A DNA stretch of 64,000 bases from an uncultured Gemmatimonadales bacterium. GTDB taxonomy: Bacteria; Gemmatimonadota; Gemmatimonadetes; Palauibacterales; Palauibacteraceae. How positions within the stretch are numbered: the first letter of the stretch is position 1; each line of letters starts with the position of its first letter. The DNA lies in NCBI GenBank assembly GCA_963783385.1, contig CAWANJ010000001.1, forward strand, positions 608,001-672,000. The letters are read 5' to 3'. A program made the translations under genes and the position numbers. The notes under the pieces were generated by a model. It was not told the DNA's origin, made no database searches, and saw only the letters and a list, made by a program, of their open reading frames with translations. Shown here in pieces: positions 50,891-52,715 of this stretch.

Positions 50891-52096
50891 GTGGAACGAC
50901 GAACCCATAAGGAAACCGGACGGCGCCCGGCCGCGGCCGCCCTGGCCGCCGTCCTCGGCCTCGGGCTCGCCCTCGGACCGAGCGGCCTGCGCGCCCAGCA
51001 GAGCGACACCACGAAGAGCACCACCCAGGCCCTCGACCTGTCGGGGGGCGGAGGCGGCGACCAGAGCCTGGAGGACCTGACGGGAGAGAACGAGTTCCCG
51101 CTCCAGATCAGCGGCTTCGGGGTGGGCGACTACACCTACGACGGGCGGACGAAGGACAACACCTTCGCGGCCGGGAAGCTGGCGGTCGCCATGTTCAGGG
51201 AGCTGAGCGACTCCTTCTGGTTCTTCGGCCAGCTGACCACCTCCCTGAACACCGAGGGCGGCGGTGGGGGCGGCGAGGTCCCCACGGACATCGAGATCGA
51301 CAACCTGATCGTGAACTTCACGCCGCCGGGCGCCACCAACCTGAGCTTCAGCTTCGGGAAGTTCGACGCGCCGATCGGATTCGAGCGGGACGACGAGCCG
51401 CTGAACCTGCAGCCGACCGAGAGCTTCAACTACAGCTACGGCCGGCCGGCCAAGATGGTGGGTCTCATCGGTCGCTGGAACCTGACCCCGTCGGTGGACC
51501 TGGCCGGCTGGGTCGCTAACGGCTGGGACGCCCAGCTCTCCTCCCACCACGGCAAGACGCTGGGGCTGCGGCTGGGCACGCGGCCGACCGGGAACACGAG
51601 CTTCGGGCTGTCGGGATTGTACGGCCCCGAAGGGGACCCGGGCGACGCCTTCGACCGCTACCTGCTCACCTTCGACTACGCCCTCCAGCCCACGCCGGAC
51701 CTGATCGTGGCCGGGGAGGCCAACTGGGGCGGGGACCGGAGCGTGCTGGCCGACGGCTCGGACGCGCGCTGGTACGGCGGTCTGCTGACGCTGTTCGGCC
51801 GCTTCACCGAGCACTTCGGCACCACGGTCCGCGGCGAGCTGTTCCGCGACCGGAACGGCGCGCGCACGGGCGTGGCGCAGACGATGGAGTCGCTCACGAT
51901 CGCCCCGACCTACTTCCTGGGCACCGGGCGCGAGGGCATCTTCGCCAACGTCGAGCACACGACCTTCCGCATCCCGCGCTTCCAGCTCCGGACCGGACTG
52001 CGCTACAACCACTCCAACCAGCCCTTCTTCGAGACCAGCACGGGGCTGGACACGTGGAACATCGAGTACCTGGCCGAGCTGGTGGCCACTTTCTAG
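50891..52096 (+). CDS. Outer-membrane beta-barrel protein (putative porin)
   Basis: RBS GGAGG, signal peptide LRA|QQ, GKFDAPIGFE, NGWD, amphipathic strands, terminal Phe. Confidence 0.85.
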   Translation: MERRTHKETGRRPAAAALAAVLGLGLALGPSGLRAQQSDTTKSTTQALDLSGGGGGDQSLEDLTGENEFPLQISGFGVGDYTYDGRTKDNTFAAGKLAVAMFRELSDSFWFFGQLTTSLNTEGGGGGGEVPTDIEIDNLIVNFTPPGATNLSFSFGKFDAPIGFERDDEPLNLQPTESFNYSYGRPAKMVGLIGRWNLTPSVDLAGWVANGWDAQLSSHHGKTLGLRLGTRPTGNTSFGLSGLYGPEGDPGDAFDRYLLTFDYALQPTPDLIVAGEANWGGDRSVLADGSDARWYGGLLTLFGRFTEHFGTTVRGELFRDRNGARTGVAQTMESLTIAPTYFLGTGREGIFANVEHTTFRIPRFQLRTGLRYNHSNQPFFETSTGLDTWNIEYLAELVATF

Positions 52097-52148
52097 GCGC
52101 CCGGAGCCCGACCCGCGGCGGCGCGACGCACGAGACGCGAGGAGCTCC

Positions 52149-52715
52149 ATGAGCGGCATCTACAGCCTCCGAGACGCGGACCGGTCGGTGAAGCTGGCGG
52201 CCGTCCTGTTCATGCTGGTGCTGGGCTACGCCTACATCTTCGCCTTCTTCATGGTGAAGCAGTACGCGGGGCTCACGCCGGCGGATGTGGCCACCACCTA
52301 CGTGCCCCGGAAGGTCGAGGTCTCCAGCCTGCCGCAGCGGTCGAGCAGCACCACGCAGGCGCTCGACCTGTCCACCATGAAGCAGGAGCACCACCGGGTG
52401 GACACGCAGCTCCTCATCCAGGACAGCCACATCCACATCATGATCTACGCGATGATCGCGGCCCTCCAGACGCTGGTCATCCTGGGGCTGGGCTGGTCGG
52501 CCGGCTTCCGCGACCTGGTCATCCTGCTCGCGTTCGGCTCCGGGGCGCTGGACTTCGCCGGACAGTGGCTCATGAAGGGCGGCATCGGGGGCTTCGCCTG
52601 GCTGACGATCGCCTCGGGCTGGCTCATGACCCTCGTGTACGTCGTCGTGCTGATCGGAACCTTGAGGGCGGTCTTCGGAAATAACAGGAAGCGGGACGCC
52701 GCGGCCGGCGCCTGA
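52149..52715 (+). CDS. 4-TM inner-membrane protein with SHIH motif
   Basis: RBS GAGGAG; hydrophobic segments; EHH and SHIHIM. Confidence 0.75.
   Translation: MSGIYSLRDADRSVKLAAVLFMLVLGYAYIFAFFMVKQYAGLTPADVATTYVPRKVEVSSLPQRSSSTTQALDLSTMKQEHHRVDTQLLIQDSHIHIMIYAMIAALQTLVILGLGWSAGFRDLVILLAFGSGALDFAGQWLMKGGIGGFAWLTIASGWLMTLVYVVVLIGTLRAVFGNNRKRDAAAGA

Follow-up and report, generated by a model that had tools for sequence, protein, structure and literature searches.

Two neighbouring genes in a 64,000-nucleotide stretch of the genome of an uncultured Gemmatimonadales bacterium (assembly GCA_963783385.1, contig CAWANJ010000001.1, positions 608,001 to 672,000 of the forward strand; hereafter the window, within which all positions are counted) encode an outer-membrane beta-barrel and a four-helix inner-membrane protein, which both contain the nonapeptide STTQALDLS. 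Our tentative reading, to which we assign a probability of about 0.42, is that both copies are one periplasmic short linear motif, most likely serving as equivalent docking strands for the soluble RnfG/NqrC-like protein encoded in the same cassette. The motif core, [Q/D/E]-x-P/A-[LIV]-D-[L]-[G/S], would be displayed on flexible tethers, at the mature N-terminus of the barrel and in the loop between transmembrane (TM) helices 1 and 2 of the inner-membrane protein, a member of family PF27139. Each peptide would offer an equivalent docking strand to the soluble protein, which could attach now at the outer, now at the inner membrane and so carry cargo or electrons from one to the other, and the full identity over nine residues would be a lineage-specific extension of the shared core.

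A nonapeptide in two envelope proteins

The barrel gene (50891..52096, + strand) codes for a BBP2/OmpL-like protein of 401 amino acids (aa), assigned to PF07642 by a match above the gathering score (E 1.2e-26, 94.2 bits against a cut-off of 26.2; residues 135-401, profile positions 83-339 of 339). We found 442 homologues, and PF07642 is annotated on 120 of the 120 listed. Residues 1-35 (50891..50995, + strand) are a predicted signal peptide, with cleavage expected from the sequence between GLRA and QQSD; the end of the hydrophobic stretch, of the type A-x-A followed by Q, aligns across 65 barrel orthologues. The barrel copy of STTQALDLS, which we call motif 1, lies at 51017-51043 (+ strand; residues 43-51) and occupies residues 8-16 past the predicted cleavage site. 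Its codons are AGC ACC ACC CAG GCC CTC GAC CTG TCG, and they are followed by GGG GGC GGA GGC GGC, which encode a GGGGG linker.

The second copy lies at 52347-52373 (+ strand; residues 67-75), in the TM1-TM2 loop of the inner-membrane protein (52149..52715, + strand; 188 aa, four TM helices), and reads AGC ACC ACG CAG GCG CTC GAC CTG TCC. Domain PF27139.1 is precomputed for this protein and for 120/120 of its listed homologues, and its neighbour clusters in the Atlas, from which we take the family name Aq_1264_TM, are 99-100% PF27139. The protein had no match in our local Pfam or NCBIfam copies, the former of which holds no PF27139 model; both the domain assignment and the four TM helices identify it as a family member. 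An AlphaFold2 model (mean predicted local distance difference test, pLDDT, 83.2; predicted TM-score, pTM, 0.74) places the helices at residues 12-39, 86-112, 118-144 and 149-176, with residues 40-85 mostly in coil and the loop block at pLDDT 66-73. Both termini are rich in Arg and Lys, as expected of an N-in/C-in orientation, so that the TM1-TM2 loop is probably periplasmic. With one copy just past the signal peptide and the other in this loop, the proposal of the preliminary description that both copies face the periplasm agrees with our reading of the topology.

That description had also reported an identical nine-residue motif in two non-homologous proteins of the operon, the copies differing only at three synonymous third positions, and the codons at both sites bear this out. 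Both sites translate to STTQALDLS, 24 of the 27 bases are identical, and a PF07642 barrel and a four-helix membrane protein are otherwise unrelated. The 27-nucleotide (nt) pattern, with up to three mismatches allowed, occurs at two sites in the whole window, and none of 100 dinucleotide shuffles gave two. The number of exact 9-mers expected from amino-acid composition is 3e-6 between these two proteins and about 8e-3 over all protein pairs of one window. The exact 9-mer is rare, yet not decisive given the scan of very many windows from which it came. An empirical count of the 9-mers that neighbouring open reading frames (ORFs) have in common was of no use here, since paralogue arrays and alternative-frame ORFs dominated it, and it left out the barrel/membrane-protein pair, whose stop-to-stop ORFs overlap.

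The motif core in relatives

Conservation was counted in the aligned columns of 65 locus pairs, each made of a barrel and the membrane protein of its own locus. L-D-L was present in 55 of the membrane proteins, and the barrels carried P-[LIV]-x-[LI] in 45 cases and [LIV]-D-L in 33, so that orthologues of both proteins do carry related motifs. In 120 membrane-protein homologues the loop consensus is S-x-[ST]-x-[QE]-[PA]-L-D-L-[GS], with L72, D73 and L74 at least 90% conserved and the flanks variable; more distant members of PF27139 keep E-x-P-[IV]-D-[LI] in the loop. The typical mature N-terminus of the barrel is D-x-P-[IV]-x-L-[GSD], as in AQDRPIDLG or DTLDQAIDLG, and it is followed by a Gly/Ser-rich linker, the element L-x-D-L-T-G-E and the first strand. 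Each motif is consequently an island of conservation within a variable and flexible segment, the loop coil in one protein and the stretch between signal peptide and Gly/Ser-rich linker in the other. When an 11-column position-specific scoring matrix of the loop motif was run over the 65 barrels, the best match fell in the N-terminal 90 residues in 39/65, with P <= 0.05 against shuffles in 20/65.

A deeply diverged subfamily, for which 304 metagenome stretches were confirmed and 80 kept (L080-L159), has membrane proteins 34-42% identical to that of the window. Its loop consensus is E-[RH]-P-[VMI]-[ST]-M, and that of its mature barrel N-terminus E-R-x-V-T-F-E-E. This subfamily is common in soil metagenome contigs and has LLVQDTHVH in place of LLIQDSHIH.

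Other elements stand near motif 1 in the barrel. The second conserved N-terminal element, LEDLTGE (51068..51088, + strand), lies just ahead of the first strand PLQISGFG and is kept in most barrels, even where motif 1 is missing. Compared with the loop motif of the membrane protein, its profile gives no match (-18.4 bits). Many barrels have D-T-[TL] or D-S-T a few residues past the signal peptide and just ahead of motif 1 (about 50999-51016 in the window; L008-L078), which resembles D-[ST]-[AILVMT], the O-glycosylation sequon of Bacteroidota. A second poly-Gly run, GGGGGG, follows the first strands inside the barrel (51257-51274; within LNTEGGGGGGEVPT), at a place where the sequences of relatives contain insertions, acidic or rich in Gly, that differ in length.

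A constant three-gene cassette

The barrel, the PF27139 protein and an RnfG/NqrC-like protein form a cassette of three genes that occurs in Gemmatimonadota and some other phyla and is widespread in soil Gemmatimonadota and Acidobacteriota. We fetched 71 genome loci with the membrane protein as query and scored the cassette genes by tblastn. The membrane protein was found in all 71 loci; the barrel gene lay directly upstream of it in 70/71 and the RnfG-like gene followed it in 69/71, and the order never varied. All three were present in 68 of the 71, and the three incomplete loci stop at a contig edge. The diverged subfamily has the same order in its metagenome loci (barrel 74/80, membrane protein 80/80, periplasmic protein 78/80). 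A profile search over 1.84 billion representatives returned only 102 clusters at E <= 0.001. No conserved flanking gene was found, ten flanking proteins from six loci belonging to ten different families. The constancy of the core amid changing neighbours counts for the docking reading, and the proteins of the cassette itself are the sole family-wide candidates for a partner of the two peptides.

The candidate partner of both motifs is the periplasmic protein encoded at 52761..53405 (+ strand; 214 aa). Its structure model (pLDDT 88.6) matched RnfG in Foldseek (9eri_G, E 2.3e-4, probability 1.00; further RnfG chains followed) and NqrC (4xhf, E 2-3e-3), with a TM-score of about 0.46, so that the earlier characterization of this neighbour as FMN-bind-like stands at the level of the fold, which is of the FMN_bind type. 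A Pfam search at E <= 10 returned 0 families for this protein, and hence no FMN_bind (PF04205) match; one of its Atlas neighbour clusters has PF04205 on 13% of its members. The flavinylated motif of NqrC and RnfG is S-G-A-T. The protein of the window has T136-K137-A138-T139 at that place, which departs from the pattern [ST]-G-A-[ST]. The genome has a single match to the flavin transferase ApbE (241 bits; G000:C3:58948-59784, L079), far from the cassette. Residues H38, H115, T136, T139, E141 and W145 are invariant in 56 sequences, and in most of these orthologues H38 lies 0-3 residues past an AxA-type signal cleavage site. We considered a classical N-terminal histidine brace: the invariant His directly follows the AxA-type site in many orthologues and is preceded by 1-3 extra residues in others. 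The protein could bind a metal through its N-terminal His, or could be a non-canonical flavoprotein.

A complex prediction for the membrane protein with the mature periplasmic protein gave weak support for an interaction (score 0.57, best of three controls 0.00). The mark used is reached by 58 of 80 solved complexes and by two of 110 mismatched pairs, and scores at 0.60 or under were those of seven of the 80 complexes and of both passing mismatches. The runs agreed in at least 80% of contacts and the partners had pLDDT of at least 84, with no contacts listed. The prediction is compatible with the two proteins touching and is silent on the motif.

Docking peptide or coincidence

We compared every six-column segment of the barrel profile with every such segment of the membrane-protein profile, leaving out the clade of the window. 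QPIDLG of the barrel against QPLDLG of the membrane protein ranked first among 67,304 pairs, at 14.8 bits. In the diverged subfamily, at a width of eight, ERTVTFEE of the barrel N-terminus against ERPVSMAE at the same loop position ranked first of 59,512 pairs, with 9.82 against 9.67 for the next. Compared across subfamilies, own pairs scored 13.2 and 6.4 bits and cross pairs 8.9 and 0.0. A resemblance at the same two places in two deep branches is suggestive; none of the tests decides the matter by itself, and co-variation at a fine scale was not seen.

A number of observations weigh against a shared docking peptide. The runner-up in the first comparison, an obvious chance pair, reached 13.1 bits and other chance pairs 11-13 bits, and 66 of 500 permutations of the membrane-protein columns reached the observed maximum over the whole proteins (P ~0.13); when permutations were limited to the two exposed segments only 1/2000 reached the score, a restriction picked after the data had been seen. 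At width 6 the match in the diverged subfamily is not on top (rank 31, with a different pair), and the barrel profile of the first subfamily fits the loop of the second (8.9 bits) better than the second's own barrel does (6.4). The segment is absent from four of the 65 barrels (Acidobacteriota records), while their membrane proteins keep xTLDLS, HALDLS or TVDLS, and the central D is conserved to 97% in the membrane-protein family versus 51% in the barrels, where S (16%) and T (12%) also occur. Co-variation within genomes, for which the preliminary description had proposed a test, was not seen: among 29 phylogenetically disjoint sister pairs, own pairs exceeded cross pairs in three, cross exceeded own in eight and 18 were ties, and mean 9-mer identity was 3.24 for own and 3.17 for cross pairs. 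Neither motif is placed at an interface by any computed result. Finally, the rarity of the 9-mer cannot be counted again, because the case was picked from a very large scan on the strength of this match.

Coincidence is, in our judgement, nearly as likely as a shared docking peptide. Two unrelated constraints, both favouring P-hydrophobic-D-L, would have shaped the two sites, and a Ser/Thr-rich lineage would have drifted to eight and then nine identical residues; the loop motif would serve the membrane protein's own periplasmic cap, beside a His/Asp cluster at the end of TM2, and the barrel N-terminus would serve the barrel, as plug, turn or in assembly. The non-significant whole-protein permutation test, the chance pairs at 11-13 bits, the missing co-variation and the four barrels that dispense with motif 1 all fit this explanation. 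Furthermore, the 9-mer identity of own pairs is typically 3-4, rising to 4-5 in two further genomes of the genus, 8 in the sister genome and 9 in the window, and a scan of about 250,000 windows is expected to yield some chance 9-mers between neighbouring genes (3e-6 per pair). Coincidence accounts less readily for a top-ranked profile pair that, in each of two deeply diverged subfamilies, coincides exactly with the two flexible segments in the periplasm, for the insular conservation of both motifs between variable linkers, and for the strict co-inheritance of the three genes.

Origin of the nine-residue identity

The DNA of motif 1 is that of the sister genome save for one codon, GTC (Val) having become ACC (Thr), and Val is found in the other five barrels of the clade. 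The 9/9 identity is therefore specific to the lineage of the window, completed by one V-to-T replacement in the barrel, and is itself no functional evidence. That the ninth match arose by a single change, to ACC where the membrane protein has ACG and hence not by copying of DNA, is also what coincidence would lead one to expect. Six of the nine codons are identical, against 4.35 expected from the codon usage of the genome (P(>=6) = 0.20). The preliminary description had taken the synonymous differences as a sign of protein-level selection; since codon identity is as codon bias predicts, this argument carries no weight either way, and the same agreement suits coincidence.

A recent micro gene conversion, moving 27 nt between the genes, would account for 24 of 27 identical nucleotides in genes that lie 1.3 kb apart on the same strand. 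It is very improbable. The barrel sequence equals that of the sister genome apart from GTC to ACC, the identity ends exactly at the motif edges, and six identical codons of nine are expected under codon bias. At the three codons that differ, the barrel uses ACC, GCC and TCG and the membrane protein ACG, GCG and TCC, so that the stretch is not a DNA copy. We rejected gene conversion, and DNA copying in general, on the match to the sister genome save one codon, the three differing synonymous sites and the sufficiency of codon bias for 6/9.

Other ways of using two peptides

The barrel N-terminal strand and the loop might instead pair directly as a beta-zipper, or the barrel peptide might displace the loop peptide, tying the membranes together without a shuttle. 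The evidence for a shared motif serves direct pairing as it serves docking, and both segments are extended coil with the alternation of hydrophobic and polar residues found in strands (L-D-L, V-T-F, V-S-M). We nevertheless give direct pairing little credence: motif 1 is only about 20 residues from the first strand and the loop motif about 10 from TM2, and tethers of these lengths could together hardly span the periplasm. Homotypic pairing moreover predicts co-variation, of which none was seen, and some barrels have no motif.

A factor encoded outside the cassette might recognise both peptides; it could be an enzyme that modifies them (by O-glycosylation, for instance), a chaperone or protease of the periplasm, or the cell wall. 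In each protein the core comes after a stretch rich in Ser and Thr (SSSTTQ, DTTKSTTQ), and the sequon-like D-T-[TL] stands just upstream in many barrels, as would suit such a factor. In the ORF translations of the genome (about 1.8 million residues) the loose pattern [QKERT][APSQT][LIV]DL[SG] has 24 matches and occurs at no other post-signal-peptide site, so that a general factor would have only two clients. Furthermore, the sequon D-[ST]-x is absent from the membrane-protein loop, and the flanking genes are not conserved; an outside factor is in our view an improbable explanation. A general sorting or anchoring signal was rejected on the same absence of the loose 6-mer pattern from other post-signal-peptide sites.

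Further features of the locus

At the periplasmic end of TM2, shortly after the loop motif, the membrane protein has a His/Asp cluster (52392..52436, + strand) with H82 and D92 S93 H94 x H96 invariant in 120 homologues, which looks like a periplasm-facing metal or cofactor site. D135, F136, G138 and Q139 in TM3 are invariant too. Against the Protein Data Bank (PDB), Foldseek found no match to the membrane-protein model at E <= 0.001, and a wide VIA-align search found generic helical bundles only, with a best Z of 9.9, below the level that is meaningful for helical bundles.

The gene at 53413..54276 (+ strand) encodes an SCO1/SenC-type protein (PF02630, E 5.3e-19, 68.9 bits against a cut-off of 22.8), with the CxxxC motif read as CRTYC in the translation, which confirms its earlier designation as SCO. 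It is a lineage-specific addition to the cassette, found at three of the 71 loci, and its earlier proposal as a general docking partner is not borne out by this distribution. Upstream of the barrel lies a short ORF with many Cys, His and Met residues (50286..50750, + strand, start uncertain; translation including CPINCLLHHHGEHAAHHDAAMMADMCH), which has tblastn matches upstream of the barrel in seven of the 71 loci and no Pfam or NCBIfam match; it is possibly a metal-binding peptide, judging by its residues. As a family-wide common partner, either of these two proteins was rejected on its presence in only 3 and 7 of 71 loci.

Discussion

The arrangement calls to mind the TonB box, a short conserved peptide in the flexible, periplasm-facing N-terminus of outer-membrane barrels whose proposed mode of docking is strand addition to a domain that reaches into the periplasm from the inner membrane. 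The present cassette shares with it a short conserved peptide at the flexible periplasmic N-terminus of a barrel. However, this barrel is a plug-less porin of the BBP2 type, a Pfam scan at E <= 0.01 having found PF07642 only and neither Plug (PF07715) nor TonB_dep_Rec (PF00593). No TonB, ExbB or ExbD occurs among the cassette genes or the ten flanking proteins scanned, to which the search was limited, the motif sequence differs, and the second copy, in an inner-membrane protein, has no counterpart in TonB systems. Among BBP2/OmpL-like porins, to which the match across the barrel body assigns this one, the subgroup stands apart in that its N-terminus is extended into the periplasm by a conserved segment bearing one or two short motifs, and in being always paired with a PF27139 gene and an RnfG-like gene. 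The likeness of the periplasmic protein to RnfG and NqrC lies in its fold and in a gene placed beside that of an integral membrane partner. It differs from them in lacking a Pfam FMN_bind match, in having T-K-A-T rather than S-G-A-T, in the invariant His that directly follows the signal peptide, and in that its partner is a four-TM PF27139 protein and not RnfD/E or NqrB/D.

The membrane protein of the window and all 120 listed homologues carry PF27139, a family of unknown function; no paper on PF27139 or Aq_1264 was found in the literature searched, which did not extend to paper supplements. Neither the loop motif of PF27139 nor its counterpart in the adjacent barrel seems to have been described. 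In a paper on flavinylation (PMC8238504) we met nothing on such a cassette; its supplementary gene-cluster lists might include this one.

As to what might be passed between the membranes, there are hints in two directions. The SCO protein and the Cys/His/Met-rich ORF in the genus of the window, the His/Asp cluster and the invariant near-N-terminal His of the periplasmic protein hint at metal handling; the RnfG/NqrC fold and the ApbE gene elsewhere in the genome hint at electron transfer, to which T-K-A-T in place of S-G-A-T runs contrary. A bolder version of the docking reading, which we regard as rather unlikely, is that the cassette encodes an undescribed trans-envelope system in which a soluble RnfG/NqrC-like protein, whose mature form has an invariant His as its first residue or close to it, shuttles between two equivalent peptide stations and passes a metal ion or electrons across the periplasm without TonB. 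The stations, copies of one flexibly tethered peptide, would stand on the plug-less outer-membrane porin and on the four-TM inner-membrane protein with its periplasmic His/Asp cluster.

If the resemblance is a coincidence, it cautions that an exact nine-residue match between neighbouring genes can arise as the extreme of a weak consensus common to both. Should the two peptides instead be equivalent docking sites, one periplasmic carrier would couple a porin of the outer membrane to a protein of the inner membrane in a simple two-station scheme. Such a coupling would differ from bridges of the TonB and Lpt types, and would be a first clue to the function of PF27139 and of an RnfG-like protein without a flavinylation motif.

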